Shown here: positions 964-38,017 of the stretch, piece by piece
Layout: each line of letters starts with the position of its first letter
Numbering within the stretch: the stretch's first letter is position 1
NCBI GenBank assembly: GCA_002439085.1
Contig: DJSW01000007.1
Span: forward strand, 26,371 to 90,370
Length of the DNA stretch: 64,000 nucleotides
Direction of reading: 5' to 3'
Source of the DNA: Alphaproteobacteria bacterium UBA6324
Lineage (GTDB): Bacteria > Pseudomonadota > Alphaproteobacteria > CAAGCB01 > CAG-977
The notes under the pieces: model-generated
The model's input: the letters and a program-made list of their open reading frames with translations, nothing else
What the model was told of the DNA's origin: nothing
Databases searched by the model: none
Program-made: the position numbers and the translations under genes

Positions 964-965
964 TC

Positions 966-1622
966 ATGCAAAAAACGATCGTCGCCCTGCCCAAAGGCCG
1001 GATTCTGGACGAGTTGCTGCCGTTTTTAAAGGCCGCGTCCATTGAACCGGAGGACGCGTTTTTCGATGAAAAATCACGTTTGTTGCGTTTTAAAACGAAT
1101 CGCGAAGACGTTGACATCGTCCGCGTGCGCAGTTTCGACGTGGCGACTTTTGTCGCGTTCGGCGCGGCGCAAATCGGCGTTTGCGGCAACGATGTTCTGG
1201 CGGAATTCGACTATCCCGAAATTTACGCACCCGTTGATTTGAAAATCGGCAAATGTCATATGGCTTCGGCCGCGTTGGCCGGATGTGAAACAACGGATTT
1301 GAACCGCGCCGGTCATGTCCGCGTTGCGACAAAATATCCGAACATCACAAAAAAATACTATCAATCCAAAGGGATACAGGCCGAATGTGTCAAGCTGTCC
1401 GGCGCGATGGAGCTGGCGCCCGCGATCGGTTTGTGCCAAAGGATCGTCGATGTCGTGTCTTCGGGCGCGACGCTGAAAGCGAACGGACTGGTCGAAATCG
1501 AACACGTCATGGACGTTTCCGCCCGATTGATCGTCAACCGGACGGCGTTTAAAACACACACGGCGGAACTGACCGTCTGGCTGGATAAATTCAAAGGAGC
1601 AGTTGATGACTTACGCGCTTGA
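966..1622 (+). CDS. hisG: ATP phosphoribosyltransferase, short form (HisG)
   Basis: Translation MQKTIVALPKGRILDELLPFL.. is the typical short-HisG N-terminus. The ATG at 966 follows the murA stop. The gene overlaps the hisD start. Confidence 0.88.
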   Translation: MQKTIVALPKGRILDELLPFLKAASIEPEDAFFDEKSRLLRFKTNREDVDIVRVRSFDVATFVAFGAAQIGVCGNDVLAEFDYPEIYAPVDLKIGKCHMASAALAGCETTDLNRAGHVRVATKYPNITKKYYQSKGIQAECVKLSGAMELAPAIGLCQRIVDVVSSGATLKANGLVEIEHVMDVSARLIVNRTAFKTHTAELTVWLDKFKGAVDDLRA

Positions 1623-2901
1623 CATTCGCAACGACGGTTTTGAAAAAGAGTTTGACGCCTTTTTGAACTCCAAGCGGGAAAACGCCGCGGATGTCAACGA
1701 ATCCGTCGCGGAAATATTGAAAAACGTGCGCGAAAACGGGGACGCGGCCGTTTTGGATTACACAAGGAAATTCGACCGCCTCGACCTGACGCCCGAAACG
1801 ATGCGCGTCGGCGAATCCGAAATCGAACAAGCCGTCGAATCCTGCGACCGCGACACGTTGGACGCGTTGTATCTGGCGGCGGAGCGAATCGAGGCCTTTC
1901 ACGACAAACAGATGCCGGAAAGCCACTTTTTCAACGATGAAACGGGCGCGCTACTGGGGTGGCGGTGGACGCCGGTCATGGCGGCGGGGCTGTATGTTCC
2001 GGGGGGCACAGCGGCCTATCCGTCGTCCGTTTTGATGAACGCGATCCCCGCCAAAGTCGCGGGCGTCAAGCGCATCGTCATGGTCGTCCCCTGCCCCGAC
2101 GGAAAGATCAACCCGCTGGTTCTGGCGGCGGCGGACTGCGTCGGCATTGACGAAATCTACCGCATCGGCGGCGCGCAGGCGATCGGCGCGCTGGCGTTCG
2201 GAACGGAAACGATCCGCCCCGTCGATATGATTGTCGGCCCCGGAAACGCCTATGTCGCAACGGCAAAACGCCAAGTGTTCGGCCGCGTCGGCATCGACAT
2301 GATCGCGGGTCCGTCCGAAATTCTGGTCGTCGCCGACGATTCCGCCAATCCCGAATGGGTGGCGGCCGATTTGCTGGGACAGGCGGAACACGACGTTTCC
2401 GCGCAGCCGATTCTGATCACGGATTGCGCCGGTCTGGCCGAAAAAGTGAAAGCCGAGCTGGAACGCCAGCTGTCCGCCTTGTCGCGCGCCGACATCGCGC
2501 GCAAAAGCTGGCAGGACAACGGCGCCGTCATTCTGGTCGAAAACCTGACGGAACAGGCGGGCGCGCTGGTTGACCGGATCGCGCCGGAGCATTTGGAACT
2601 TTGTGTCAAAAATCCGGAAGAACTGTGCAAACGCGTTCATCACGCGGGGTCGATCTTCCTCGGCCATTTCACGCCCGAAGCGATCGGCGATTACGTCGGC
2701 GGGCCGAACCACGTCCTGCCCACGGCGCGCAGCGCGCGTTTTTCGTCGGGGCTGGGCGTCCAAAGCTTTATGAAGCGCACGACGATCCTGTCCTGCACGG
2801 ACAAAACGCTGAAAGAAATCGGCAACGCCGCGGTTCTGCTGGGAACGGCCGAGGGGCTGACCGCACACGCCGAATCCGTTCGCAAGCGGTTGCGGGGCTG
2901 A
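1606..2901 (+). CDS. hisD: histidinol dehydrogenase HisD
   Basis: About 430 aa with HisD-like sequence throughout (..GPGNAYVATAKRQVFG..AGPSEILVVAD..). RBS AAGGAG lies 8 nt upstream of the ATG at 1606. Confidence 0.9.
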   Translation: MTYALDIRNDGFEKEFDAFLNSKRENAADVNESVAEILKNVRENGDAAVLDYTRKFDRLDLTPETMRVGESEIEQAVESCDRDTLDALYLAAERIEAFHDKQMPESHFFNDETGALLGWRWTPVMAAGLYVPGGTAAYPSSVLMNAIPAKVAGVKRIVMVVPCPDGKINPLVLAAADCVGIDEIYRIGGAQAIGALAFGTETIRPVDMIVGPGNAYVATAKRQVFGRVGIDMIAGPSEILVVADDSANPEWVAADLLGQAEHDVSAQPILITDCAGLAEKVKAELERQLSALSRADIARKSWQDNGAVILVENLTEQAGALVDRIAPEHLELCVKNPEELCKRVHHAGSIFLGHFTPEAIGDYVGGPNHVLPTARSARFSSGLGVQSFMKRTTILSCTDKTLKEIGNAAVLLGTAEGLTAHAESVRKRLRG

Positions 2902-3038
2902 AACCGCCGCGTTTCTTGACTTTATTGCCAGTAATCGTTTAGACTATCTTTCGGTAAAGGAAAAGACGGCTGTTCGATTGCACCGTCCGATACGACGGTT
3001 TATTTCCGCACAGCGTCCGTTTTTAAGGGAGGAACGCC

Positions 3039-3641
3039 ATGACAGGTTTTGTTATCGCCGGAATTGCGCTTGTTTTACTGGTCGTGTTGATGAAAGTGCA
3101 CATCACACCGGAGGAAGCCGAAGAGCTGGCCGCCTATGAAAAAGCGGAAAAAGAAGCTAAAAACAAAAACCATAAAAGCCCAAAAGCCGAAGACGCCAAA
3201 ATCGAAGAACAGCTGGAAAACAAAACCCACGCCGGCCGTTCCGTCCGTTTGGACAAAGTCACCGAACGCATTGTCAATTTGATGGAAGACGGCAACGTCG
3301 CGGAAATCCGTCAGGCGTTAAGCAACGGCATCGACATCGCGCGCCCCCTGCCTGACGGGCAGACGGTTTTGATGATCGCCGTCAAACACAATCAGGATCA
3401 CGAAATCGTGCCGTTTTTGGTGCAAAACGGCATTGATATCAACGCGAGGGACGACAAAGGCCAAACCGCGCTGATGCTGGCGGCCACGTTCAACCCCGAT
3501 CCGGACATGGTGCGCATCCTGTTGGACAACGGCGCGGACAAAACGATCAAGGACAAAAACGGCAAAACGGCCGCCGATTATTGCGGTTTGAATTTCGATT
3601 TGATGGGAACGGACATCCCCGAATTGTTGTTCGTCGGCTGA
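3039..3641 (+). CDS. ankyrin-repeat protein with N-terminal transmembrane helix
   Basis: RBS AAGGGAGG precedes the start. The N-terminal hydrophobic segment is GFVIAGIALVLLVVLM. Ankyrin motifs follow (GQTVLMIAVKHN.., GQTALMLAATFN.., LLDNGADK..). Confidence 0.75.
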   Translation: MTGFVIAGIALVLLVVLMKVHITPEEAEELAAYEKAEKEAKNKNHKSPKAEDAKIEEQLENKTHAGRSVRLDKVTERIVNLMEDGNVAEIRQALSNGIDIARPLPDGQTVLMIAVKHNQDHEIVPFLVQNGIDINARDDKGQTALMLAATFNPDPDMVRILLDNGADKTIKDKNGKTAADYCGLNFDLMGTDIPELLFVG

Positions 3642-3660
3642 TCCGTTTTTACAAACACGC

Positions 3661-4818
3661 TTACAAACAAGGACACGTCGCTGCGGACTTTTTCGCGGCG
3701 GCTTTTTTTACCGGCGCTTTTTTGACCGCGGGCTTTTTCACGGCGGGCTTTGCCGCGGGACACGGCGTCGCCGGAACGCTGAGGCATTTTTGAACGCACT
3801 TGGCGACATCCGGTCTGGATTGGCCGTCCGCCCCCGTCATGCCGATTTTAGCGTAGGTCAGCTTTTCAATCGCGGCTTTCTCCTTGGCCGCTTCGGCGGC
3901 GGTGATCAGGTTCAAATTCCGCAGTGTTTCAATCCGGCGCAAAGCGGTCGCCCCTTGCAGAATATCCTGCGGCACGGGCGCGGGCGTCATCCGGTAAAAC
4001 GGATTGGACGGCAGCAAAGCCTCCAGTATGATTTCGCGTTCGGCAGCGTGTTCGCGGGGCGTGATGGCGCGCATTTCCAACGCTTCGCGCAGCGCGTTCA
4101 ACCGCCCGATGATCACGTCCCCCGTCGGCGCGGGCAGATCCAGCCCCTTTCCCGCCGGCGCCAGCGTATAGGGCAGCAATCCGCCCAGATTGACGGCGCG
4201 GCGCGACTGCCATTCGTCTTCGGTCACATATTTTTCATCGCGCAGGCGGATGAACGTCAAAAAACGCAAAACGACGTTGCGGTCGCCCTCGGACAGCATA
4301 TCCAGCCCGCCTTTGATTTCATCGGCCGAAGCGACCTTTTTTCCGGCCGCGTAATCCTTTTGCCCGAAAGCGGACGCGGTGAACACGGCCGTTTTCGTTT
4401 CCGAATCCATAACTGCCAGCGGCGTTTGCGGCAAATTCAGCGCGGCCAGACGCGCGGCCGCCGTTTTTTTCAATTCTTCGGCCGGAACGTTGCGCACGCC
4501 CCCGAACACGCCGACGGATTCGCCGTCGTCCGACGCCGCCGCCTGTTCGTACAGCGCGCGCGCCCTGTTCGGATACCCCAACCGTTCATAGGACAGCCCC
4601 GCCACCAGCATGGCGTAAACGTCGTCCGGATTTTTTTGCAACGCTTTTTGCGCGTAATGGATGGCGTCTTCATATTCGCTGGCCGACCAGTTCAAGATGG
4701 ATTGTTCGGTGTCGGTTTTAAACAGCGAACTGCCCGGTGTGGAACAGCCGCAAATCAAAACGGACGCAGTTAAAACGGCGGCGCTGACCGTGCGTGACAA
4801 ATGACGACGTAATTTCAT
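3661..4818 (-). CDS. TPR-repeat lipoprotein with Lys/Ala-rich C-terminal tail
   Basis: Signal peptide plus lipobox (..VLICGCSTP). TPR-like repeats are present (AIHYAQKALQKNPDDVYAMLVAGLSYERLGY..). The C-terminus is an AKK repeat (AVKKPAVKKAPVKKAAAKK). The start ATG at 4818 overlaps the upstream stop as ATGA. Confidence 0.7.
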   Translation of the reverse strand: MKLRRHLSRTVSAAVLTASVLICGCSTPGSSLFKTDTEQSILNWSASEYEDAIHYAQKALQKNPDDVYAMLVAGLSYERLGYPNRARALYEQAAASDDGESVGVFGGVRNVPAEELKKTAAARLAALNLPQTPLAVMDSETKTAVFTASAFGQKDYAAGKKVASADEIKGGLDMLSEGDRNVVLRFLTFIRLRDEKYVTEDEWQSRRAVNLGGLLPYTLAPAGKGLDLPAPTGDVIIGRLNALREALEMRAITPREHAAEREIILEALLPSNPFYRMTPAPVPQDILQGATALRRIETLRNLNLITAAEAAKEKAAIEKLTYAKIGMTGADGQSRPDVAKCVQKCLSVPATPCPAAKPAVKKPAVKKAPVKKAAAKKSAATCPCL

Positions 4819-5435
4819 GACTTCCCCCATTTTTTGCGCAATTTTTCCCTGTTCATCACGAACCATTGAACGGCGATGATCGTCAGCGCGTTGTTGAATT
4901 CCCCGCGAAACAGCTTTTCTTCAACCTCGGCGGCGGACAGAACGACGACGCGGATGTCCTCGCCTTCCGATTCCAAACCGGCGTATTCCGGCACGCGCGA
5001 AGCGTCCGCCCGTCCGCAGTACACATACAGCTTTTCCGACAAACCGCCGGGGGAGGAGTAATATTCGCACACGGGTTCGACCGCCGTCACCGCCACGCCC
5101 GCCTCTTCGGCGGCTTCGCGCGCGACAACGTCCGCCGGCGATTCGTTTTTATGATCCAAAATGCCGGCCACACATTCCAACACCCACGGGTTTTCATCCC
5201 CCGCGGCGAAAACGCCCACGCGCATCTGTTCGACGAACACCAGCTTGTCCAAATCGGGATCGTACAGCAAAACGCCCGCCGCGCGGCCGCGTTCCATCAC
5301 TTCGCGCGAAATCTCGCCGCTCATTTCCCCGTTGTACAGCGGGAATTTCAGGCGATATTCATCCACTTTGAAAAACTTTTCATACAGGTTTTTCTTTCCA
5401 ACGATTCGAATGTTTTCCCGCATTCTGGCGACCAT
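4815..5435 (-). CDS. NUDIX hydrolase (ADP-ribose pyrophosphatase-like)
   Basis: A Nudix box-like segment is present (..GILDHKNESPADVVAREAAEEAGV..). RBS AAGGGAG precedes the start at 5435. The gene is translationally coupled to the downstream lipoprotein gene. Confidence 0.72.
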   Translation of the reverse strand: MVARMRENIRIVGKKNLYEKFFKVDEYRLKFPLYNGEMSGEISREVMERGRAAGVLLYDPDLDKLVFVEQMRVGVFAAGDENPWVLECVAGILDHKNESPADVVAREAAEEAGVAVTAVEPVCEYYSSPGGLSEKLYVYCGRADASRVPEYAGLESEGEDIRVVVLSAAEVEEKLFRGEFNNALTIIAVQWFVMNREKLRKKWGKS

Positions 5436-5522
5436 GATCAAAAAAGCTCCCTTAAATCGGATTTGGTGTAGTATAGTGGACAAAGATTAACAAAATTCAA
5501 ACATTTGCAGGACTTCGCCCCC

Positions 5523-6947
5523 ATGGAAATACTGACCGCCGGACAAATGCGCGACGCCGACAAGGAAACCGTTGCAAATATCATGCCGGAATTGCAGCTG
5601 ATGGAAAACGCGGGGTTCGCCGCCGCGTGTCAAATCGCGCGCAGATACGGCAAGCGCCCCGTCACCGTTTTGTGCGGCGCGGGCAACAACGGCGGGGACG
5701 GGTTCGTCGTCGCCCGATTGTTGCGGCAGCGCGGCTGGCCCGTCGAAGTCGTTTTCACCGGCGACGAACAAAAAATGACACCCGCCGCGGCCGCAAACGC
5801 CAAAAAATTCAAAGGCGCCGTCCGCCCGTTATCGCTTCAGAGCCTGAAAAGGGCGGAAAAGGACGGCCGTCTGTTCGTGGACGCCGTTTTCGGCACAGGA
5901 CTTTGCCGCCCCGTCACGGGCGATATCGCCGATTTTTTCAACGCGCTGAACGAAACGGCCGCGCCGTGCGTCGCGCTGGACATCCCCGGCGGCGTTTGCG
6001 CCGACACGGGCGAAGTGCTGGGAACCGCCCCGTTCTGCGATATGACGGTCACTTTTTGCCGGCCGAAAATCGGGCATTTTCTCTACCCCGCCAAGGAACG
6101 CGTCGGCGATTTGACCGTCTGCCCGATCGGCATCCCCGACGAAATCGTCGCGCATCAAAATCCGTCCGTTTACGAAAACGCGCCCGATTTGTTTTCCGTA
6201 CCGGCGGCGACGCCCTATGACAACAAATATTCCCGCGGCGCGGTGTTGGTGCGCGCGGGCGAAATGAGCGGAGCCGCCCGATTGGCCGCGGCGGCGGCGC
6301 GGCGCGCGGGCGCGGGATGGGTCGGCGTGTCCTGCGACACTCGATTGCAAAACCTGTTCGCCCTTGACGCGGAAACGGTCGTCCAGCCCGCCGACACCGC
6401 CGAAGCGTTCAAAACGCAGTTGAGCGGCCGCAAAATCTCCGCCACCGTCATCGGTATGGGAATGACGGAAACGCCCCGTGTCAAAGAATTTATGGACATC
6501 CTTTCCGCATCCGGAAAACCGTTCGTCGCCGACGCGGGCGCCCTGCCCTTTATCAAAACCGTCAAAGATCCGTCCCGCGCGATCGTCACGCCGCACGCGG
6601 GCGAATTTTGCCGCCTTTTCCCCGACATAGCCGGAAAAAACAAGTTGGATCAGGCGCGGGCAGCCGCCAAAGCTTTAAATTGCGTCGTCGTGTTAAAGGG
6701 TGCGGACACCGTCATCGCCGCCCCCGACGGCCGCGCGGCGATTAACGCGACAACGGCGTTCAATCTGGCGACGGCGGGCAGCGGCGACGTTTTGGGCGGC
6801 ATCATCGGCGCGATGCTGGCGAAATCTCTCCCCCCGTTTGAATCCGCCTGCGCCGGCGTGTGGCTGCATTCCCGCGCCGCCGAATCCGCCGGACGAGAAA
6901 ACCTGATCGCTTCGGACATTGTTGACGCGCTGGGCGAAATCCGATGA
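5523..6947 (+). CDS. nnr: bifunctional NAD(P)H-hydrate repair enzyme Nnr (epimerase/dehydratase, YjeF family)
   Basis: The N-terminal YjeF-N motif is present (VLCGAGNNGGDGFVVARLL). The C-terminal carbohydrate-kinase-like domain is present (..VLKGADTVIAAPDG..GSGDVLGG..). Confidence 0.85.
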   Translation: MEILTAGQMRDADKETVANIMPELQLMENAGFAAACQIARRYGKRPVTVLCGAGNNGGDGFVVARLLRQRGWPVEVVFTGDEQKMTPAAAANAKKFKGAVRPLSLQSLKRAEKDGRLFVDAVFGTGLCRPVTGDIADFFNALNETAAPCVALDIPGGVCADTGEVLGTAPFCDMTVTFCRPKIGHFLYPAKERVGDLTVCPIGIPDEIVAHQNPSVYENAPDLFSVPAATPYDNKYSRGAVLVRAGEMSGAARLAAAAARRAGAGWVGVSCDTRLQNLFALDAETVVQPADTAEAFKTQLSGRKISATVIGMGMTETPRVKEFMDILSASGKPFVADAGALPFIKTVKDPSRAIVTPHAGEFCRLFPDIAGKNKLDQARAAAKALNCVVVLKGADTVIAAPDGRAAINATTAFNLATAGSGDVLGGIIGAMLAKSLPPFESACAGVWLHSRAAESAGRENLIASDIVDALGEIR

Positions 6948-7423
6948 AGTTTTTGTTTTACCTGCTGCGGCACAAATTTTGGGTGTTTTGGTTTTGCGCG
7001 CACCACGGAATGATTTGGCGCGGGCTGAAGCATGATTGCGACAAACTGCGCCCGTCGCTGTTTTTCACATACGCCCGCAACTTCGCGCTGGCCGAAAAAC
7101 TGCGCGACAAAACGGGGCATTACAGTCCGGCCGCCGTGCCGGACGAATGCCGGATCGCCCTGCTGAACCATTTTCACCGCGCGCGCCACCATTGGCAACA
7201 TTGGATTTTACCGTGCGACACGAAAATCGAACCGCTGGACATGGGTGAAAACGACGTGCGGGAAATGCTGTGCGATTGGGCGGGCGCGGGACGGACGCAG
7301 CGCGGCAAAAACTGGCGGCGCGCCGACGTGCGCGATTTTTTCATAAAAAACAGGGACAAAATGGTTTTGTCCCCGCGCACGATCGAATTGATTGAAAAAA
7401 ATCTGGATTCGATGGGATTTTAA
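6944..7423 (+). CDS. hypothetical protein (His-rich HHG...H.D.DK motif), family not recognised
   Basis: The ATG at 6944 overlaps the nnr stop. The ORF is 159 aa. Its last 80 nt or so are duplicated at 11061-11143. Confidence 0.55.
   Translation: MKFLFYLLRHKFWVFWFCAHHGMIWRGLKHDCDKLRPSLFFTYARNFALAEKLRDKTGHYSPAAVPDECRIALLNHFHRARHHWQHWILPCDTKIEPLDMGENDVREMLCDWAGAGRTQRGKNWRRADVRDFFIKNRDKMVLSPRTIELIEKNLDSMGF
7343..7423. repeat. direct repeat copy 1 (3' end of the 159-aa gene; contains hairpin GGACAAAATGGTTTTGTCC)
   Basis: About 85% identical to 11061-11143 over roughly 81 nt. Begins ATAAAAAACAGGGACAAAATGGTTTTGTCCCCGCGCAC. Confidence 0.7.
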
Positions 7424-7499
7424 CAAGTCCTGCGGTCACACCCGCACAAAAGGCGGGGACACGTTCCCCGCCTTTATATTGTGATGCAATATCCGGAAA

Positions 7500-10400
7500 T
7501 CAGAAATTCACTTTCAGATTCACCATGCCCGTGTGATCGGCGTAATCATTTTTAAAACGCCCTTCGTATTTCAGCGACAATTCGCCGCCGCGTCCGAACG
7601 CGATCGCCAAACCCGCGCCGGCTTCAACGCCGAATCTATCCAAAGGATCGCCTTTGACCCGATATTCGGTCAGATCCGGCAAAACAACCGTCCTGTCATC
7701 GTTATCCTGATTGAAATCATACGTCGCCGCCACTTTCAATTCCGGCGTCACCCCGATGGACGGCGCGAAATTCAAATAGTAGTCGTTGGATAGCTTCGCC
7801 CCGACAACCCCCGTCCAAGTGTTTTGAATCGATTTTTTCAACCTCGCCCCAAGCGCGTCGGTATATGCGTTTTGGCGAATGTTCATGAAACGCAAAGCGG
7901 CTTCCGGACTGAATATGCCGAAATCATACCCGACCGCCATTTGCGCGGAAACGGCGTCGGCCGTATAGTTGCTTTCCATTTCAGTCAAACGCGTTTTTTC
8001 GTCATATCTGGAATGGCCGTAACCGGCGACGGCGTTCACATAGGCTTTGTACGGTTTGTATTCGCCATAAACAAAGTAGGTGTGCGTATCAACGTCGGTC
8101 GCAGCGCGCTGCGTCCCGATATCCGTCGAAGCAAAAGCGTACCCCGCGCCGAATTTAAAGTCGTCCGAAACATTTCCTTCCAACCCCGCCGCAAAGCCGC
8201 CGGTATGGGCGTTGAAACCGTCATTTTTATCAAGCTTTGCATAGTTCATCATGCCTTGCGCCCAAACGGAAACGCGGCCGGATTCAAAATCGCCGCCCGA
8301 ACGCCCGCGGTAACGGCGGGAATAATTGCCGTATCCCGTTCTGCCGCGATAACCGCCGCCCCAATGTTCCGAAAAACCGCCGAAACGGGTTTGAACGACG
8401 TTGATGACGGATTTTGCGGCGTTGGAAGCGGCCGTATTCGCGGATTGCGTCACGTCGGGCGCGACTTCGCGCAAAATCTGCTTTGCCGTTTTTTCATCCG
8501 CCTCGTCCAGCAACGTATTGACGCGATCGACCGTCTTCCGGACTTTTTTATCAAATTTGGAAAAAAGATCGTCTTCGATATCCAGAACCTTCGACGCGTC
8601 GCGTTGCGTTTGCGACACTTTTTCTCCGGCCTTTTCCAAATCTTCAATGACGGCTTCGGACGCCGTCGCCAACCGCAGAATATATAAATTGCCGCCGTCC
8701 CAATCTTGCAAACGTTTGATGTTTTTCGCGTCCTGCGGATCAAAGTACGTTTTGGAAACGGCATAGCGCGATGTCGAATAATCCCCCAAATTAAATCCCG
8801 TTCCGTCCGTAATTTTATACAGCGTCGTCACGTCGCGCGAAACGCCCGACATCCCCAGCTTCAACGTCACATTGCTTGCGGACGTATCAACCTTAATGAT
8901 GGCGGACGTTTTCGCCGCGTCCGTTAAAATGGCCGAAATCGTCCCGCCCGTAATGGTATCGGCTTTCAACGTTCCCGCCCCGATGTCCAAAGTTTTTCCG
9001 GCGGCGATGGTAATGTCCTTGATCACGGCGCCATCGGCGAATTTCAACGTGGCAAGCGAATAGTTATCCGCAAAATTCAACGACGCCGTTCCGGATATCG
9101 TTCCCCGGATGCGGGCGTTTTCATGCTGAAAATTGATTTGCGTTTCTGAAAAATCCGCCTGCGCGTTCAACACGCCGCCCAAATTCAACCGTCCGCCGTT
9201 TTCAAAATGCAGAACGTTCCCGTCGTTCGACCCAACGTTCAAAACCGCGTTTTTGGCAATGTTCAGCGTCGAATTGTCCAATGAAACCGTCCCGCTTCTG
9301 GCGGAAACTTCGTTGTTGCCGTTAACGGCGACCGTCGAATTGGAAACGGTCAGATTTCCCGATTTGAAACTGTCGTTGATCAATCCCGACGTTCCGTTCA
9401 TCGTGACAACGGAATTTTGAACCGTCACGTTTCCGCCCCAATTATCCAAAACGACGTTCATATTGTTGTACGCTTCGTACAATTTTTGTTCCAGATATTT
9501 CCAATCCGGCGTTTTCCCGTTGTCCCAAGCATCTGTGACGTGCTTCATCAAATTCGTAGCCGTACCCGTTTCCGAATCCGGTAAAAGGAAACCAAAAGAA
9601 TAAAACGGATCGTCAACGCTGTTCGGCAAATCGTCGCGTTTTTTCGTCGTCGCGTCCACTTTTTTCAATTCGGACAGAATGATGCCGACCGAATCCGCGA
9701 TTTCGGCTTGCGTCAATTTGTTCCGGACGGCGGAAACATCCTTCCAACAATCTTCAAAGCGGTCAAGCGGGTCGGCATAATCTTTGACCTTGCCGTAATC
9801 GGCGGCGGAAATGCTTTCGGCGAAAAGCCCGATCCCCGCCAACGAATTTCCGTTCAGAACCAAATCGGCGTTATCAAAGTTCGTGCTTGCATCAATCGCC
9901 GATTCTGCATTTGAAAACATAAACGCATTATATTCTTCGTACAAAATTTTATCGCCGAACAAATGTTTGTTATGCAGATGTGTGAAATTTCCCGCAAACG
10001 TGTCTTTGTTCAACGTCGCCTTGCCGGACAACGTTCCGACACTTAAATTTGTTTTTGCCAGAGAAATCCCCCTGTCGCCGGAAATGTTCATTTGCCCCGC
10101 GTGCAAATCGTGGAAATTCTTGCCGGCTTTCAAATTTAAAACCGTTTTATTCGAATCAATGTTCAAATCGTTTGCGGTGCCGCTCCACCACCAATCGACG
10201 CCGTCAAAATTTCCGCCGGACAAATTTAAATTGCTTGTACCGCCCAAAGTGAACGCTCCGCGAAACGTGCCGCCGGTGATTGTCAGATCGCCGACGTTCT
10301 TCTTCTCCTCCGTTGTTGGACTATTGCTTGTAAAAGTCATATCCGTAAAATTCCCGCCGGTGATTTTTAATGAATTGTTGGAATAGATCATGCCATTGTC

Positions 10401-10745
10401 GAATGTGCCGTCGGTAATCGTCACATCTTTGCCGGACAAACTCAAATAAGGTGTTGGCGTTGGATAGTCATAGAATGTTCCGCGGAACGTGCCGCCGGTG
10501 ATTGTCAATGAATTTTCGGCGGATATCATAACGTTGTCGAATGTTCCGCCGGAAACGGTGATGTCGGAGATCGGTTCTTCCGTATCGGCGGGGATTTTTG
10601 TGTCCTTGTAAGTGCCGGAGGATATGTCCAAAGCCCGCGCCGGTGAAACGACCGCAAAAGCCGCCAGATTGATCAAAGCGCATTTAATCAGCACCGCACG
10701 ATACCGGCGCGCCAAAGTTTTCAAAGTCGTTTCGGATTGCTTCAT
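7500..10745 (-). CDS. autotransporter adhesin (beta-helical passenger plus C-terminal autotransporter beta-barrel)
   Basis: Signal peptide MKQSETTLKTLARRYRAVLIKCALINLAAFAVVSPARA. Passenger has repeated TITGGTF/LSGGNF motifs. The C-terminal roughly 280 aa resemble an autotransporter barrel, with the final residue Phe (..GMVNLKVNF). GC is lower than the flanking sequence. Confidence 0.85.
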   Translation of the reverse strand: MKQSETTLKTLARRYRAVLIKCALINLAAFAVVSPARALDISSGTYKDTKIPADTEEPISDITVSGGTFDNVMISAENSLTITGGTFRGTFYDYPTPTPYLSLSGKDVTITDGTFDNGMIYSNNSLKITGGNFTDMTFTSNSPTTEEKKNVGDLTITGGTFRGAFTLGGTSNLNLSGGNFDGVDWWWSGTANDLNIDSNKTVLNLKAGKNFHDLHAGQMNISGDRGISLAKTNLSVGTLSGKATLNKDTFAGNFTHLHNKHLFGDKILYEEYNAFMFSNAESAIDASTNFDNADLVLNGNSLAGIGLFAESISAADYGKVKDYADPLDRFEDCWKDVSAVRNKLTQAEIADSVGIILSELKKVDATTKKRDDLPNSVDDPFYSFGFLLPDSETGTATNLMKHVTDAWDNGKTPDWKYLEQKLYEAYNNMNVVLDNWGGNVTVQNSVVTMNGTSGLINDSFKSGNLTVSNSTVAVNGNNEVSARSGTVSLDNSTLNIAKNAVLNVGSNDGNVLHFENGGRLNLGGVLNAQADFSETQINFQHENARIRGTISGTASLNFADNYSLATLKFADGAVIKDITIAAGKTLDIGAGTLKADTITGGTISAILTDAAKTSAIIKVDTSASNVTLKLGMSGVSRDVTTLYKITDGTGFNLGDYSTSRYAVSKTYFDPQDAKNIKRLQDWDGGNLYILRLATASEAVIEDLEKAGEKVSQTQRDASKVLDIEDDLFSKFDKKVRKTVDRVNTLLDEADEKTAKQILREVAPDVTQSANTAASNAAKSVINVVQTRFGGFSEHWGGGYRGRTGYGNYSRRYRGRSGGDFESGRVSVWAQGMMNYAKLDKNDGFNAHTGGFAAGLEGNVSDDFKFGAGYAFASTDIGTQRAATDVDTHTYFVYGEYKPYKAYVNAVAGYGHSRYDEKTRLTEMESNYTADAVSAQMAVGYDFGIFSPEAALRFMNIRQNAYTDALGARLKKSIQNTWTGVVGAKLSNDYYLNFAPSIGVTPELKVAATYDFNQDNDDRTVVLPDLTEYRVKGDPLDRFGVEAGAGLAIAFGRGGELSLKYEGRFKNDYADHTGMVNLKVNF

Positions 10746-10775
10746 TTTCCCATTCCCTTGCACTGTTAAACAAAA

Positions 10776-10960
10776 ACCGCCTTGGTCAGGCGGTCGGGGA
10801 GTAGAAAAACCATATAGTATCAAATGATCCTTTCGGCCTTTAAACGCCCTCCGTTTTTTCAAGGATAGTGACGGAGCGCGTTCTGAACATACGCCAAAAG
10901 CTCCCCGACCTCCGGTTAAGAGTTCGGGGATATTTTCCGGTTTCACCGTTGGCAAACCGG
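10776..10960 (-). promoter_or_regulatory. structured leader element copy A (P1 helix GGUCGGGGAG/CUCCCCGACC, then terminator hairpin CCGCCUGACCAAGGCGG-UUUUU) about 30 nt upstream of the autotransporter start
   Basis: Homologous to 36690-36870. Contains an inverted repeat, an internal compensatory hairpin, and conserved blocks CGUAUGUUCAGAA and UUUAAAGG. Confidence 0.45.
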
Positions 10961-11060
10961 TTTACGACGCATATCGGCGCCGGATACTATAAGAGGTTTT
11001 CTAGGCCTCCGTGCCCGCTAAGACACAACTGAAAGGATACACAATGACGGGCATATGTTC

Positions 11061-11143
11061 AATAAAAAAAGCGGAGACAAAACGGTTTTGTCCCCGCGCA
11101 CAATCGAATTGATTGAAAAAATCCGGATTCGATCAGGTTTTAA
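11061..11143. repeat. direct repeat copy 2 (degenerate duplicate of the 3' end of the gene at 6944-7423)
   Basis: AATAAAAAAAGCGGAGACAAAACGGTTTTGTCCCCGCGCACAATCGAATTGATTGAAAAAATCCGGATTCGATCAGGTTTTAA, aligned to 7343-7423. Confidence 0.7.
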
Positions 11144-11337
11144 AGCAACTTTTCAAACGCCGATTTTGTCAATTCCTCGACATCTTCGCCCTTGGCGATT
11201 TCGGCGATATAGGCGTTGTCGATTTTGAACGCGCCGTTTTTAAACGCATACGCCGCCCGCGCGCCGTATTCGGTGTATTCAACCTTGACGGGAACGACCC
11301 CGACCTTGAAATAACGTAAAGAAACCTTTTCCATCAC
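11140..11337 (-). CDS. small hypothetical protein (65 aa); candidate antitoxin partner of the upstream RelA/SpoT-domain gene
   Basis: The ATG overlaps the upstream gene's stop (ATGA, 4-nt overlap). No family recognised. Confidence 0.5.
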   Translation of the reverse strand: MMEKVSLRYFKVGVVPVKVEYTEYGARAAYAFKNGAFKIDNAYIAEIAKGEDVEELTKSAFEKLL

Positions 11338-11987
11338 CGTCCCCCGACTTTCGCGTTTTTGGCTTTGATCATCAGCGCGGCGGGCTGCTTGTCCTGTTCG
11401 ATTTTCAGCTTGCGCCCCTTGGTGCGTTTGTTGAACGACAGCGCCGCGTCCATATACAGCCCCTGACAGATTTTTTCGCGCATGGCGATTTCTTTCTGTT
11501 CCGCGACGGTCAACGGCCGGTCTTTGGCTTCGGCCGTGATGGAACGTATTTTTTCATAATGGCGGTGCGTTTCCTTGTCAGCCTGCGCGAAATCGCTCAG
11601 CTGAATCTGCATTTCGACGGCAAAGCCGTTCTTTTCCGGAAAAATGTATTTCAAATCGCGGTATCCGCGTTCGTTGGGCTTGTCCATACGGTCGGCTTCG
11701 CGGATCGGCGTCGTGTATTCCTTGACGGCCTTTTTGATCGCGTCCACCTGTTCCAGCGAATCGCAGATCAGGCGACAGCGCGCCAGATCCTGCAGCTGCG
11801 ACACGTCGCCGCGGTATTTCGCGTTCAATTTTTCTTCGGCGCGTTCGCGGCCTTTCAACGGCGCGGATTTGAATTCGCACCCGAATTGCTTGGCCAGTTT
11901 TTCACCGAAAGCGTCCAAAGAGGGCTTTGCCTCCGCCGCCAGCTTGTACGCTTCGTCCAAAGTTTTGGGAATCTGTCTTTCCACCAT
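11334..11987 (-). CDS. RelA/SpoT-domain nucleotidyltransferase (small alarmone synthetase-like; candidate toxSAS)
   Basis: Synthetase-domain motifs are present: KGRERAEEKL, DLARCRLICDSLEQV (cf. DIAGIRII), NERGYRDLKYIF (cf. NGYRSLH), VEMQIQLSDFAQ (cf. EIQIRT) and HRHYEKIR. The C-terminal tail is basic. Length is 217 aa. Confidence 0.72.
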   Translation of the reverse strand: MVERQIPKTLDEAYKLAAEAKPSLDAFGEKLAKQFGCEFKSAPLKGRERAEEKLNAKYRGDVSQLQDLARCRLICDSLEQVDAIKKAVKEYTTPIREADRMDKPNERGYRDLKYIFPEKNGFAVEMQIQLSDFAQADKETHRHYEKIRSITAEAKDRPLTVAEQKEIAMREKICQGLYMDAALSFNKRTKGRKLKIEQDKQPAALMIKAKNAKVGGR

Positions 11988-33887: not shown

Positions 33888-35222
33888 ATGAACACGCAAA
33901 ACGAAACATATTCCGCCCCCGCTTTCGCGGACTTTTCCTTTGATCGGGAAAGGGACATCCCGTTCGGCGTCCCCATTCACATCGAATTGGACGACAACGG
34001 CGGCGTGGTCGAATTGCGTTCGTTTTACGAAGCGGGCGTTTTCGCCGCCGGCGAATTGAAAGCGTGGCACGACATCATCGGATCGGAAACGTCCGACAAA
34101 CCGTTCATCCAGAAAATCATCGACTTTCAGCTGCAAACGCCGCGGTCGATCCTGAACGCCGCCCGTTCCGTTTTGAACACGGAAATGTCCGCGGCCGAGG
34201 GTTTTTCCATCATCCGCAAGGATTTAAACGCCTATTTAGGGTTCAAGTGCATCCATTCGCAAGGCACGCTGGGACAGATGGCGACGATCATGTATCGCTA
34301 CGAACCGATGCTGATGGGCATACTGGCCGGCGCGACGGGCGCGGCGCCCCTGACGGACGCGGCCGGCTTCGGCACGTCGGCCGACGCGGAAAGCTTCACG
34401 TTCGGGTACGCTTTCACCCTGCAATTCAGAACGAATGTCCAACCGGAAATGCTTGACGGCAAAGTGTCGGAAACCCTGCGCAAAATCAACGGCATCATCC
34501 GCCGCGTCGAATTGGCGGAAAAGCAGATCAAACCGATTGAAAGCGAACACTTTGCCCTGCAACAAGGGATTGAAGAGGCGCGCCGCCAGCTGCAGATGTA
34601 CCGCAACGACGTCGCGCAATACGTTTCCCAACTGGTGGCCGAAATCAAACAAACGTCGGACAGCGCGGTCGGCGCGATGTGGGATCAGCTGAACCTGATT
34701 CAAAACGACCACGAACGCCAGCTGGCCGCTTTGCGTCAAAGCGTCGCCAGCCGCATCCGTTACGGCACGGCGTTGGATTATTGGAACGACCAGCTGAACC
34801 AGAATCAGACCAAAGCCAACCAGATGACGGGTTGGTACGTCATTTCCGGCCTGTTTTCGATCACGGCCGTTTTGGCGATCGTCGCGGGCATTTCGTTTAA
34901 AATGCCGAACATCTCGACGTTTATGAGCATCGTCACGCTGGGATTGCCGATTGCGATCGCCTGCGGGTTGCTGTTCATGTTGCTTCAGACGCGCACCCGT
35001 TATGAAAAGGTCGCCGTGCAGGCGCAGGAAAAGGTGTCGATGCTGGAAACGCTGGCGGCGTTGGAAACCGAAGGCAAAGCGAAGGATGAAGACCGCGAGG
35101 GCATATTGGAAAACATTTTCCAAACCAGCTTTGCCCCGCAACCGGCCGCCCCCGCCCATTCCGCCGCGACCGCGACACCCTCCCCCGCCGCCGAAACCGC
35201 CGAACAAAACGACCGGCCGTAA
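33888..35222 (+). CDS. hypothetical protein (444 aa): N-terminal globular region, coiled coil, two C-terminal transmembrane helices, Ala/Pro-rich tail
   Basis: No recognised domain. Two hydrophobic helices lie at about residues 320-365. Confidence 0.6.
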   Translation: MNTQNETYSAPAFADFSFDRERDIPFGVPIHIELDDNGGVVELRSFYEAGVFAAGELKAWHDIIGSETSDKPFIQKIIDFQLQTPRSILNAARSVLNTEMSAAEGFSIIRKDLNAYLGFKCIHSQGTLGQMATIMYRYEPMLMGILAGATGAAPLTDAAGFGTSADAESFTFGYAFTLQFRTNVQPEMLDGKVSETLRKINGIIRRVELAEKQIKPIESEHFALQQGIEEARRQLQMYRNDVAQYVSQLVAEIKQTSDSAVGAMWDQLNLIQNDHERQLAALRQSVASRIRYGTALDYWNDQLNQNQTKANQMTGWYVISGLFSITAVLAIVAGISFKMPNISTFMSIVTLGLPIAIACGLLFMLLQTRTRYEKVAVQAQEKVSMLETLAALETEGKAKDEDREGILENIFQTSFAPQPAAPAHSAATATPSPAAETAEQNDRP

Positions 35223-35267
35223 CCGTTTTCCGGCCGCGCTGTTTGCACTAACCGCAAAAAGCGAAGA

Positions 35268-36677
35268 TCATTTCCACTTTCTTTTCAAAAAAGCGGTGGC
35301 CGGTTTTTCGACATATTTATGAACGAACACGCCCAGCACCCAAGACAGCAAGACCGTCCCCGCTATAACAAAACCGTTGTGTTGTTGCAAAAATGAAAAC
35401 CGTTTGTACCAATGCAGCACGACATCCATTTCCAAAAACCAGTGCGTCATGTAAATAGCAAAGGAACAAGCGGATATTTTCGCAAAAAACGGGCGGTTGA
35501 AAAATCGTGAAACTGCGCCCTGCTTCATACCGAACAACAAAATCAGTCCAGCGAAACAGACGACGGCGAAAATCTTGTTTTCCGGACACGCGCCTTTTAC
35601 AAACACGATGGCGGCGGCATAAAGCGTCAACGCGATTTCCGCAATTGTGCAAAACAATGCGTTCGCCGGTTTTCGTTTTTGAAATGCCAGATAAAGCGAC
35701 GCCGTAAAATACCCCAATCCAATTCCGGCGACACCGCGCAGCAAACGAACGGAAAAAACACCGCCGATCATGCCGTCCCAACCGAAATGGCGACAGGCGG
35801 CATAGGAAAAGAACGTCAGCAACGCGAAAATCAAACGGTTGGATTGGATGTTGCAAATTTTCATCATGTAAAAATAAAACAGGGACACCCAGAACAAAAC
35901 CGCCAAAAACCAGCTTTGCGGCGGCACAACATCATCCGACAATCCCGTGCTTTGCAAAAACAAAACATTTGAAACCACGGGGACAAGCTTGGCTTTCCCC
36001 AAAAAAGCGCACAACAGCAGCAACGGCACGAAATGTATGATTTTCGATTTGGCGAAATCGAACGTCGTTCTGGCCGGATCAAACGTCAACATCATAAAAA
36101 AGCCGGATAAAATGAAAAAGAATTCAACCCCCAGTCAACCTTCGTTAACGATATCCAGTCTTTCCGTCAAATGATAAACGACGATCCCGAACGTGAAAAC
36201 CAAACGCAGAAATTCCATGTTCATCATCGCCGGAACCTTGTCATCAAACGGCCTTACGCCATTCACAACCGTGTGCCACAGGCAAAAATACAAAAATCCC
36301 AGCAGCAGAAAAACTTTAAAATCGAAATGCGCGGCGGGTTTGAACGTTTGCGAAGACAGCGCGCTCATATCGCGAAAAACGCTTTTTTTATCACCGGCGA
36401 TTTTAACGTTTGCGATTTGCGTCCCTGCCGGCGGCGACAAATTCAGCTCCGTCATTTCATCCGCCCATATTCGCGCGGACGCCCTGCCGTTTTTGACTAT
36501 CCGCGCAGACGCGGAACGAACCGTTCCCGCCGCGTCTTTGTATGAAATGGCGATTTTTCCGTTTTCAGCCGTTGTTTCGACCGCGATTTTAAACATCGCG
36601 TCCAAAAACAAACAACGCGTAAAAAACAGCGTCGCCGCCGTCAGAAAAAGGATGAAAAACCTCTTTGATCCGGACAT
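35268..36677 (-). pseudogene. acyltransferase family 3 (OafA-like) gene interrupted by an in-frame TGA (36135-36137), with an N-terminal 130-aa signal-peptide extension
   Basis: ORFs 36135-36677 and 35268-36095 share one frame. Read-through gives ..FLRLVFTFGIVVYHLTERLDIVNEG*LGVEFFFILSGFFM.., the Acyl_transf_3 core. GC is about 45%. Confidence 0.6.
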
Positions 36678-36689
36678 ATTCCCCTCCCG

Positions 36690-36870
36690 TAAAACCGCCT
36701 GAAATCAGGCGGATCGGGGAGTTGAAAATCATACCGTGAAAATGACCGATCGACCTTTAAAGCCGTACGATAAAAAATCGGGGCTTCTGAACATACGTCA
36801 AGCCCTCCCCGATCCATGGGAATCAGGGATATAATGCCGTCCCGCCATATGCGAAACGGATTGTACGGCG
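36690..36870 (-). promoter_or_regulatory. structured leader element copy B (P1 helix GGAUCGGGGAG/CUCCCCGAUCC, then terminator hairpin CCGCCUGAUUUCAGGCGG-UUUU) 15 nt upstream of the RBS and start of the acyltransferase gene
   Basis: Homologous to 10776-10960. Confidence 0.45.
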
Positions 36871-37159
36871 CTTATATCAAACACCGCTCACAGTAAGAGC
36901 TTTCTACGGCTCCGCGCCCGCCAAGGCGCTGTTGCGGACGAACAATTCATCCGCAATTAACGGCAGGTTACGGAATTTTTCGATCAAATGCAATCGCAAA
37001 AACCGCCTGAACCGGCAAGCGAACATATTGTCCGCTTTTTCATTTGACTCGGCGGGCGGGGTTTGTTATGGTTGATTTTGTAATTTTTCAGCAGTCCTGT
37101 TAACGGCTGCAAATCCTGAGGTCACCGTTCGGTGGCCTTAGTTGTATTCGGAGAGTGTC

Positions 37160-38017
37160 TTGGTCAAAATCTGCTACATTGACGAATCCGGCGATTTGGG
37201 CACCCTGCCCGTCGAATCCAATCCCGACGGAAACCACCAGCCCGTTTTGGCCATTGCGGGCATTTTCGCCGATCACGAGGATTTGTACAATCTGACGCAC
37301 GATTTCATCAAGCTGAAATACCGTTACTACCCCGGATTGAACTATCCGACGGACAAATTCCTTGACCGCATCATCCCCGAAATCAAAGGCGCCGACCTGC
37401 GCCGCAACGCCATGCGCGGCAGCAAGCGGATCAAGCGTCACGCCATCGGTTTTCTGGACAGAATCGTCGATCTGTTTTACAAATACGACATCCGCATCGT
37501 CGGCCGCATCTGGGTGAAAATCCCCGGCCAGCCTTTTAACGGCAAAGCGGTTTACACCTCGTCGATCCAAAGCATCTACACCTATTTCGACAACTATTTG
37601 CAGCAAAAGCAGGATTACGGCGTCGTCATCGCGGACAGTCGGGATTACATGAAAAACATCAACCTGTCGCATTCCGTTTTCACGCAGAAATTCCGCCATT
37701 TGTACCCGCTGTACCAAAACATCGTCGAAATGCCGTGTTTCGGGCACAGCAACAATCTGGCCGGATTGCAGCTGTGCGACATCCTGTGTTCCGCGTTTCT
37801 GTTCCCGATCGCCAGCTGGGTTTATTGTTCCGACATCGTGCACAACGTCCACGTCCAACCCGCCGCGGTCGAACTGCGCGACCGTTACGGCCACCGTTTG
37901 CGCGAACTGCAGCACCGCTTTGTCACCAAGGACGGCTTCAATATGGGCGGCATCGTCGTTTCCGATCCGATCCGGAAACAAAACGCCGTCGCCATGTTCA
38001 AGGACGTTGCGAAGTAA
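37160..38017 (+). CDS. DUF3800-family protein
   Basis: The N-terminal motif VKICYIDESGDLG is the DUF3800 signature. A TTG start at 37160 follows the GGAGAG RBS. The track ORF begins at 37142. Confidence 0.65.
   Translation: MVKICYIDESGDLGTLPVESNPDGNHQPVLAIAGIFADHEDLYNLTHDFIKLKYRYYPGLNYPTDKFLDRIIPEIKGADLRRNAMRGSKRIKRHAIGFLDRIVDLFYKYDIRIVGRIWVKIPGQPFNGKAVYTSSIQSIYTYFDNYLQQKQDYGVVIADSRDYMKNINLSHSVFTQKFRHLYPLYQNIVEMPCFGHSNNLAGLQLCDILCSAFLFPIASWVYCSDIVHNVHVQPAAVELRDRYGHRLRELQHRFVTKDGFNMGGIVVSDPIRKQNAVAMFKDVAK

Follow-up and report, generated by a model that had tools for sequence, protein, structure and literature searches.

In ON riboswitches of the adenine pbuE type, the helix that closes a folded sensor is itself the antiterminator and a terminator lies directly behind it; in attenuators of the trp type, a third segment competes for the antiterminator strand through 1:2, 2:3 and 3:4 pairings. 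The put, EAR and LoaP leaders and the RfaH/ops system act by processive antitermination for surface and accessory operons. Structured RNA candidates also occur beside DUF3800 genes: the DUF3800-I to DUF3800-X motifs, each co-oriented with the gene and upstream of it (Weinberg et al. 2017, PMC5737381). Here we describe a structured leader of about 270 nucleotides (nt) that occurs twice in the window, that is, in the whole 64,000-nt stretch of contig DJSW01000007.1 from Alphaproteobacteria bacterium UBA6324. The copy under study, copy B, lies on the minus strand at about 36958-36691, and is homologous to a leader at about 11027-10772, copy A. From its sequence, we consider copy B to be, more likely than not, a cis-acting attenuator or ON-switch that gates both transcription and translation of the gene behind it, with a putative effector that stabilizes a closed junction.

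Two copies of a structured leader

An earlier note on this DNA, made from its letters alone, had described positions 36690-36870 as a second copy of one leader, and pairwise alignment does match that interval to the sequence preceding the autotransporter gene that starts at 10745. The interval falls within the element and takes in only its 3' two-thirds; the element begins about 90 nt further 5', near 36958. A hidden Markov model (HMM) built from 62 related elements matches the window at exactly two places, 36931-36691 (E-value 9e-59) and 11026-10768 (E-value 6e-53). Compared with dinucleotide-preserving shuffles, the two copies give folding z-scores of -5.0 and -5.4, and none of 200 shuffles folds as well.

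At the 3' end of copy B, a hairpin with UUUU is followed by GGGAGGGG and then by the ATG at 36677. The note's order of terminator hairpin, UUUU, ribosome-binding site and ATG is thus right when read on the minus strand: hairpin 36712-36695, UUUU 36694-36691, ACGGGAGGGG 36690-36681, ATG 36677-36675. Its placement of the leader upstream of an acyltransferase gene is likewise borne out, copy B being on that gene's strand. The pseudoknots, the antiterminator and the spread of the family had not been seen by the reader who made that note. The features of copy B, from 5' to 3' along the minus strand, and of its sister copy are as follows.

36965-36993, minus strand: putative sigma-70-type promoter, -35 TTGCAT (36993-36988), 17-nt spacer, -10 TAACCT (36970-36965), read by eye
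36932-36956, minus strand: P-1, 5'-terminal hairpin UUGCGGA...UCCGCAA, an inverted repeat whose sequence differs between copies
36914-36929, minus strand: P0, hairpin GCGCCU-UGGCG-GGGCGC, with covarying columns 27:45 and 28:44
36896-36913, minus strand: S1, hairpin of GGAGC (36913-36909) with GCUCU (36900-36896); every variant folds thus
36906-36901, minus strand: S2a, the S1 loop UAGAAA, which pairs with S2b
36888-36893, minus strand: P1a, CUGUGA, partner of P1b UCACGG (36739-36734)
36866-36886, minus strand: P2, hairpin with conserved loop UGAUAUA; pairs 80-85:98-103, with 21 double changes at 85:98 and the GAUAU of the loop kept
36837-36859, minus strand: P3, hairpin, variable in sequence and missing from the compact variant (L166 group)
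36822-36828, minus strand: seg1, CCCUGAU (consensus AUCCCCGA), forming with seg2 the hairpin P4, an anti-antiterminator
36805-36815, minus strand: seg2, GGAUCGGGGAG (consensus UCGGGGAG), partner of either seg1 or seg3
36747-36804, minus strand: P5/P6 arm, with P5a 36804-36797, P6 36787-36759 and P5b 36754-36747
36796-36788 and 36758-36755, minus strand: core internal loop within the P5/P6 arm, GUAUGUUCA opposite AAAG
36728-36746, minus strand: P7, hairpin of GUCAU (36746-36742) with AUGAU (36732-36728), whose loop carries P1b (36739-36734)
36722-36727, minus strand: S2b, UUUUCA, partner of the S1 loop; one base is missing in copy B, so that 5 of 6 pairs form
36711-36721, minus strand: seg3, CUCCCCGAUCC, antiterminator with seg2 (closing a three-way junction), otherwise paired with the Shine-Dalgarno (SD) region
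36691-36712, minus strand: terminator CCGCCUG-AUUU-CAGGCGG with UUUU, 7-base-pair (bp) stem 36712-36695; the hairpin is conserved and covaries
36675-36690, minus strand: seg4, the SD region ACGGGAGGGG (36690-36681), and the ATG (36677-36675), read directly
10772-11062, minus strand: sister copy A, promoter TTGAAC-17-TATCCT (11062-11034), terminator CCGCCU-GACCA-AGGCGG with U5 (10793-10772), ahead of the autotransporter ATG at 10745

In other copies, a promoter of the form CTTG(A/C)-17-TAT(C/T)CT precedes the element by an equal distance. A consensus promoter scan did not call the TTGCAT-17-TAACCT of copy B; we infer that this is the leader promoter, which would put the start of transcription near 36958, some 280 nt ahead of the ATG. 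Hairpins of differing sequence occupy the P-1 position in most copies, and P0 occurs in variants such as CCUG-A7-CAGG, GCCU-GAAAAAG-AGGC and CACC-GAAA-GGUG. The element ends, as intrinsic terminators do, in a G+C-rich hairpin with an immediate U-run, and 116 of the 149 unique tails have a run of at least four U. The hairpin of copy B has four U and is missed by a simple terminator scan that needs five T.

Two mutually exclusive helices

Three conserved segments of the leader form two helices that exclude one another, CCCCGA:UCGGGG (seg1 with seg2) and UCGGGGAG:CUCCCCGA (seg2 with seg3). In A3, an alignment of the 3' half of 78 representatives that was used for the pair counts of these segments, P4 is paired at 95.5% over 8 pairs, with covariation at 12:35, and the seg2:seg3 helix at 93.5% across 11 pairs, of which the outermost two carry 14 and 29 double changes. 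For both structures, none of 500 shuffles of A3 reaches the observed covariation score, and every slid register collapses. In 97 of 148 copies the seg2:seg3 helix has 10-13 uninterrupted bp, and it reaches 2-3 nt into the 5' arm of the terminator; copy B forms all 11 pairs without a mismatch, 36815-36805 with 36721-36711. Because this helix runs into the terminator stem, seg2:seg3 is the antiterminator. Copies that consist of the 3' domain only preserve it through compensatory changes (UUCGGGGUU:GGCCCCGAA in L045, CCGGGGAG:CUCCCCGG in L060b), and in L002 and L054 it reads GGGGGG:CCUCCC.

In 31 unique copies the inner hairpin and the U-run are separated by the SD (CGGAGA or CGGGGA), whose sequence is complementary to seg3. 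Among these copies, a U in seg3 accompanies an A in the SD by 11:1, and a C in seg3 accompanies a G in the SD by 9:4. In the 85 copies termed type 2, the inner hairpin leads straight into the U-run and the SD lies a further 15-30 nt downstream. The minimum free energy fold from seg1 to the end has seg1 paired with seg2, and seg3 paired downstream, in 111 of 149 copies, and the default state is therefore predicted to be off. A helix that terminates or sequesters the SD and is exclusive with a sensor helix, as riboswitches have, is thus found here computationally.

Leader-peptide attenuation from a conserved AUG (with SD GGGGAG) was considered and rejected, since neither the length nor the sequence of the open reading frame (ORF) is conserved. 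Only one AUG recurs, the one inside the core loop. The ORFs that it opens span anything from 2 to more than 44 codons and have nothing but MFR in common, and two copies have no AUG there.

Covarying helices and loop-strand pairings

The whole element, about 250 positions, was analyzed by HMM, anchored alignments and duplex tests. In a partner-swap test, which is independent of any alignment, duplex energies were computed in 83 representatives for each strand with its own partner and with partners swapped in from other copies:

P1: own -10.1, swapped -1.9 kcal/mol, with 98% of swaps weaker
S2: own -5.65, swapped -1.60 kcal/mol, with 92% of swaps weaker
P3: own -10.4, swapped -5.5 kcal/mol
P5: own -9.7, swapped -5.65 kcal/mol
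P6: own -6.0, swapped -3.0 kcal/mol
P2: own -9.8, swapped -7.8 kcal/mol

Control combinations, such as S2a with P1b, give own and swapped energies that are alike. RNAalifold pair counts show 30, 26 and 27 double changes at S2 columns 55-57:287-289; in A3, P5 has 29, 27 and 16 and P6 has 11-32. P7 is 94.5% paired, with double changes at 4 of its 5 pairs and the compensatory variants AUCA:UGAU, AUCU:AGAU, GUC:GAC, GUCG:UGGC and AGUC:GGCU. S1, like P7, is more conserved, and its stem is maintained as GGAGC:GCUCU, GGAGG:CCUCU, GGGAC:GUCUU, GGAAGU:ACUUC, GGAGUU:AACUC and GGGGUU:AACCUC. The terminator hairpin covaries at pairs 301-307:320-325. The internal loop CG-N-AUGU-Y-CA / AAAGG is invariant in a set of sequences found independently of that loop, while seg1 (AUCCCCGA) and seg2 (UCGGGGAG) are nearly invariant in a set ascertained through the core loop. 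The leader thus has the conserved, covarying, aptamer-like fold in a 5' untranslated region (UTR) that is expected of a riboswitch.

Together, these pairings predict two hairpins, S1 and P7, of which each has a loop that pairs with the strand following the other hairpin. The loop pairings, of 6-9 bp, are flanked by linkers of 1-2 nt on their 5' side and of 0-1 nt on their 3' side. S1 with S2, whose distal strand lies some 170 nt downstream, has the arrangement of an H-type pseudoknot, its linkers being 1-2 nt and 0 nt around the 6-bp S2, which classical pseudoknot geometry permits for a helix of that length. On established pseudoknot geometry, both loop-strand pairings would be of the H type, P7 with P1 in circularly permuted form.

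Two further pairings were tried and discarded. A helix of the 5' CGGAG with seg3, proposed by RNAalifold, shows no covariation and equal own and swapped energies. A pairing of the internal-loop strands between S2 and P1 (S1b:P7b) comes to -0.2 kcal/mol, essentially unstable, except in the compact L166 variant. The GAUAU of the P2 loop and an AUAUC before seg1 are both conserved; their variants are few and none is compensating.

A proposed attenuator with an ON state

The reading we prefer assigns these parts to two modules. The RNA would fold into a 5' module (P-1, P0, S1, P2 and P3) and a 3' module, the latter a three-way junction with two arms, P5/P6, which holds the invariant internal loop, and P7. 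The modules would be clamped together by the two loop-strand pairings, the S1 loop with the strand after P7 (S2) and the P7 loop with the strand after S1 (P1). By default, seg1 (CCCCGA) would pair with seg2 (UCGGGGAG), leaving seg3 (CUCCCCGA) free, so that the terminator forms and the gene is off; in many copies the freed seg3 would additionally pair with the SD. In the on state, seg2:seg3 would close the three-way junction by a helix of 10-12 bp, take the first 2-3 nt of the 5' arm of the terminator, and free the SD. The shift to the on state would be driven by an effector that stabilizes the closed junction, be it a small molecule, an ion, a protein or a condition. A role in cis is supported by the promoter just upstream of each copy and by the occurrence of a full and a minimal copy in tandem at one locus.

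A family in gut and rumen Alphaproteobacteria

A first scan, of one genome per species, used the pattern CGTATGTTCAGAA-N15-45-TTTAAAGG, which forces invariance of the core loop. It returned 71 loci, 66 of them real, all in uncultured Alphaproteobacteria of human gut or rumen, with at least 3-7 copies per genome. A second scan, of metagenomes, used an independent pattern of seg1 plus seg2 and returned at least 118 loci; 111 were confirmed by HMM among the matches listed. The seven loci that the HMM did not confirm, all from soil or rhizosphere, were rejected as chance matches to the pattern. In all, there are at least 187 HMM matches; among the matches listed, 159 are full length, 149 are unique, and 83 are representatives below 85% identity, and true matches are restricted to human-gut or rumen Alphaproteobacteria. 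A phage origin was considered and set aside, viral contigs having given 1 match only.

Six of the 66 real loci (L011, L026, L031, L043, L047 and L063), in which the leader occurs together with autotransporter genes, come from assembly CAVCSV01, a bin labelled Limosilactobacillus gorillae; evidently the bin or its label is wrong, the sequences having been mis-binned.

A cmscan search of the whole window against Rfam 15 (4227 models) found nothing at the gathering threshold. With the cutoff relaxed to an E-value of 10, both copies gave chance-level matches alone (MIR7991, ncS16, L20 leader, cow-rumen-1, C0465), far below threshold. Full-text literature searches, in which conserved strings were included as queries, found no description of the leader family.

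Genes behind the leader

The leader always has the orientation of the next gene. An SD-preceded ORF on the same strand begins within 140 nt in 149 of 182 copies, and the gap between terminator and gene is 20-60 nt, too short to hold a further promoter. Classified by clustering and Pfam, the downstream genes encode:

autotransporters (34 of 149)
EcoRI-type adenine methyltransferases (14)
N6/N4 methyltransferases
a Type ISP restriction-modification enzyme (1603 residues), SNF2 helicase, PD-(D/E)XK nuclease
Acyl_transf_3 O-acyltransferases
LicD with cytidylyltransferase; a nucleotidyltransferase-kinase fusion (LicC/LicA-like)
GT2 and GT8 glycosyltransferases
DegT aminotransferase, epimerase/dehydratase, FkbM methyltransferase
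small lipoproteins, many
DUF805/pilin-like proteins; an XRE regulator
35268-36677, minus strand, the gene behind copy B: one Acyl_transf_3 O-acyltransferase with an N-terminal extension, by Pfam

The acyltransferase behind copy B is interrupted. An in-frame TGA at 36137-36135 (minus strand) splits it into ORFs of 180 and 275 residues, which ORF callers would report as two genes; its homolog has Trp at that position. In tblastn, the 483-residue homolog behind the leader in L055 aligns in a single frame with 33% identity (E-value 1e-54), the stop lying opposite the Trp. The 180-residue ORF that follows the leader is the N-terminal part of the acyltransferase itself, and the split marks either a pseudogene, a strain-level OFF allele or an assembly variant.

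Gene classes such as those listed form the phase-variable "contingency loci" of Haemophilus, Neisseria, Campylobacter and Helicobacter, and in other host-associated bacteria coordinated or stochastic on/off control is achieved through DNA repeats or inversions. Two DNA-based mechanisms were considered for the leader itself, and neither gave any indication of switching at the DNA level. Slippage at the U-run between SD and AUG was rejected, its lengths, counted by eye, being 5-8, all with workable spacing. For an invertible promoter, no convincing flanking inverted repeats were found around the promoter of copy B.

Weighing the explanations

Several observations count against an effector-controlled attenuator. 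The controlled genes share no metabolite and point to no candidate ligand, so that the coherence of genes around one ligand that marks riboswitches is missing; a metabolite riboswitch with such targets would be unusual. The sequences are related paralogs and orthologs, and shuffle controls therefore overstate significance. In the commoner type 2 copies, the antiterminator removes just 2-3 of the 5-7 pairs of the hairpin, which predicts only a modest effect on termination. Conservation of the three segments is strong enough to leave most of their pairs without any variation, and support for the two alternative helices consequently comes from flank positions and a few divergent copies. Copy B itself may be decaying: just four U follow its hairpin, its S2 lacks one base, and its gene has a premature stop.

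The main rival is processive antitermination, factor-dependent or RNA-autonomous, in which the leader, or a NusG-type or other protein that it recruits, would make the polymerase read through both the built-in terminator and later ones. We regard it as unlikely. It would account for a terminator immediately after the element in every copy and for a type 2 antiterminator that hardly overlaps that terminator, and the genes for surface polysaccharide modification, adhesins and pilin-like proteins, with other horizontally acquired genes, resemble RfaH/UpxY regulons; some downstream units are also long, as with the 1603-residue Type ISP enzyme and the autotransporters. Many targets, however, are single short genes, neither EAR nor any other Rfam family is matched, and a 1:2, 2:3 and 3:4 competition with SD sequestration would be superfluous in such a system. 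A further idea is a constitutive structured 5' UTR, a portable cassette of promoter and leader that stabilizes or insulates the mRNAs of acquired genes and in which the alternative pairings are incidental. That the leader travels with its own promoter ahead of unrelated genes, that orthologous autotransporters in the window and in L008 have different leader variants, suggesting exchange, and that the P-1 hairpin resembles a stabilizer all fit this idea, which is nevertheless improbable: a terminator between promoter and gene is costly unless regulated, both of the competing helices are kept, with covariation in each, the SD forms part of the terminator arm and varies in step with seg3, and an invariant internal loop with two pseudoknots far exceeds what stabilization needs.

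Still less probable is an independent small RNA family, whose terminated transcript of about 270 nt would function in trans and whose position upstream of genes would reflect read-through. In its favor, the leader has its own promoter and terminator and is multi-copy, the hypervariable, covarying P1 and S2 could be specificity determinants, and the 3' end appears to serve as an integration site for a genomic island at six loci, as the genes for tRNA and tmRNA do; yet orientation and spacing relative to the downstream start codon are fixed, the SD is inside the terminator arm in 31 unique copies, and the gap of 20-60 nt holds no separate promoter for the downstream genes. A self-cleaving ribozyme in the 5' UTR, like glmS or the ribozymes near restriction-modification and phage genes, is suggested by a double-pseudoknot core with a small set of invariant unpaired nucleotides and by a scattered, defense-rich gene neighborhood. 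We give it very little credence, since it resembles no Rfam ribozyme family, the sequence bears no mark of a cleavage site, and the expression platform is fully explained without cleavage.

If the attenuator reading is correct, the leader constitutes an uncatalogued large RNA family of at least 187 copies, whose fold combines two pseudoknots with an explicit terminator/antiterminator/SD switch and whose hosts are all uncultured, poorly known Alphaproteobacteria of gut and rumen. It would be a new orphan switch whose effector can be sought, a handle on regulation in a lineage without genetics, and possibly an alternative, at the RNA level, to DNA-based phase variation. The leader sits before classes of genes that set the appearance of the bacterium to its host and to phages, and it is a sensitive metagenome marker for these bacteria and their surface and defense loci. 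A broader reading, which we offer tentatively and hold to be doubtful, takes the leader as a bistable RNA switch or as the sensor of a new riboswitch-like class, with control over the whole contingency gene set of small-genome gut Alphaproteobacteria: adhesins, the phosphocholine, acetyl and glycosyl decoration of lipopolysaccharide, DNA methyltransferases and restriction systems. On this broader reading, the hypervariable, covarying P1 and S2 clamps might stop the ten or so paralogous leaders of one cell from mispairing.

Variants of the leader

A compact variant of about 165 nt is found at L166, L143, L120, L090, L149, L115 and six more metagenome loci, upstream of a 157-residue protein without Pfam match. 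P3 is missing, P6 is cut to GGAG-GAAA-CUCU, and complementarity of the strands between S2 and P1 joins the two into one nearly continuous 17-bp helix. Copies of this variant that are otherwise near-identical differ in a poly-A tract, A6 in some and A7 in others, that separates the start codon from an upstream ATG.

At L060, on the minus strand, a full leader (6557-6332) is followed directly by an element with the 3' domain only (6276-6173), before a DegT aminotransferase gene. The second element comprises seg1, seg2, the junction and seg3 only, and L045 and L057 likewise have 3'-domain-only versions, which show the 3' half to be a self-contained module. Two loci are degenerate. At L181 (4721-4829, minus strand), the sequence 5' of the core loop is replaced by unrelated DNA with a promoter-like TATTAT box, and only P5b, P7, seg3, the terminator and the SD are retained, so that this may be a constitutive derivative. 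At L125 (1907-1997), the 3' half is replaced.

At six loci in several genomes (L030, L032, L044, L062, L067 and L071; for example, L067 about 300-8000), the leader is intact as far as CUC(C/U)CCG and the terminator is replaced by a conserved sequence of about 450 nt with its own small hairpin and U-run. An AlpA-like helix-turn-helix gene, a resolvase fragment and a type I restriction-modification system follow. The insert looks like a genomic island that integrates at the 3' end of the leader, much as islands do at tRNA genes.

The autotransporter behind copy A (window 10745-11062) has an ortholog in UBA6347 (L008, 6450-6800), with the same first 47 or so residues and the same upstream gene end. 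The two leaders clearly differ, being of copy A type with a long P6 in the window and of copy B type in UBA6347, which suggests that leaders have been exchanged between loci.

Surroundings of the two copies

The earlier note had placed copy B in a divergent intergenic region of 460 nt shared with a DUF3800 gene. The non-coding spacer, 36678-37141, measures 464 nt, and the Pfam match of the divergent gene to DUF3800 has an E-value of 9.5e-17. The note's label "AT-rich" does not single out the spacer: the GC fraction of the spacer is 0.47-0.52, no lower than that of the flanking genes (0.43-0.53), and is low solely relative to the values above 0.6 beyond 38 kilobases (kb), where a major facilitator superfamily transporter gene sits. 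The low-GC block is the whole 35.2-38.0 kb, made up of the acyltransferase gene, the leader and the DUF3800 gene (about 35200-38000, GC 0.43-0.53); it is consistent with acquired DNA.

That the spacer might hold promoters for both genes, as the note had proposed, is plausible, the leader promoter having been read by eye and the DUF3800 promoter coming from a scan; spacer 36678-37141 would then serve the leader and the DUF3800 gene alike. Other features of the spacer, one of them on the leader side and two on the DUF3800 side, are:

37003-37022, minus strand: terminator-like hairpin with U5, just upstream of the leader promoter
37044-37072, plus strand: scan match TTGACT-17-TATGGT with extended -10, directed towards the DUF3800 gene
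37116-37141, plus strand: 11-bp hairpin immediately before the DUF3800 start

No Rfam DUF3800 motif is matched here.

Near copy A, the second gene upstream on the same strand (11334-11987, minus strand) encodes a 217-residue RelA_SpoT-domain protein of the small alarmone synthetase type. Between it and the leader lie a gene ending at about 11140 and a strong terminator at about 11100-11065. The proximity is probably coincidental, although ppGpp is conceivable as an effector.

Comparison with known systems

Processive antitermination leaders (the EAR RNA of the Bacillus eps operons, the put RNA of phage HK022, LoaP- and UpxY-dependent leaders, and RfaH/ops JUMPstart) resemble the present element in being 5' leaders before surface or accessory operons with a terminator after the element. 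The leader differs from them in its much larger size, its explicit competition of terminator and antiterminator with SD sequestration, and the lack of an EAR match in Rfam. With the DUF3800 motifs it shares only the adjacency of a structured RNA candidate to a DUF3800 gene; here that gene is divergent, the other copies of the family are not beside DUF3800 genes, and there is no Rfam match to DUF3800-I to DUF3800-X even at an E-value of 10, so that copy B does not appear to be a member. The c-di-GMP-I (GEMM-I) riboswitches offer an analogy in their several copies per genome, their adhesin, pilin and surface rather than metabolic targets, and their junction RNA with a conserved internal loop. 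The architecture is different, however, with no match in sequence or structure, and GEMM riboswitches do not typically control genes for DNA methyltransferases or restriction.

The closest parallels are the ON riboswitches of the pbuE type, which likewise have a folded sensor whose closing helix is the antiterminator with a terminator directly behind, and the trp-type attenuators, in which a third segment likewise competes for the antiterminator strand. As in these systems, the element is located in the 5' UTR and is occasionally found in tandem. Unlike trp-type attenuators it has no leader peptide, and unlike riboswitches it has no Rfam match and controls genes that share no pathway. Two properties set it apart from both the pbuE and the trp systems: an extra 5' module clamped to the sensor by two long loop-strand pairings and, in a third of copies, an SD within the terminator arm, whereby transcription and translation are both gated. 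The family, its double-pseudoknot architecture, its joint gate on transcription and translation and its set of genes are absent from Rfam and from the literature searched. A 5' leader with competing terminator and antiterminator is a device of a kind already known; the RNA family that embodies it here is new.

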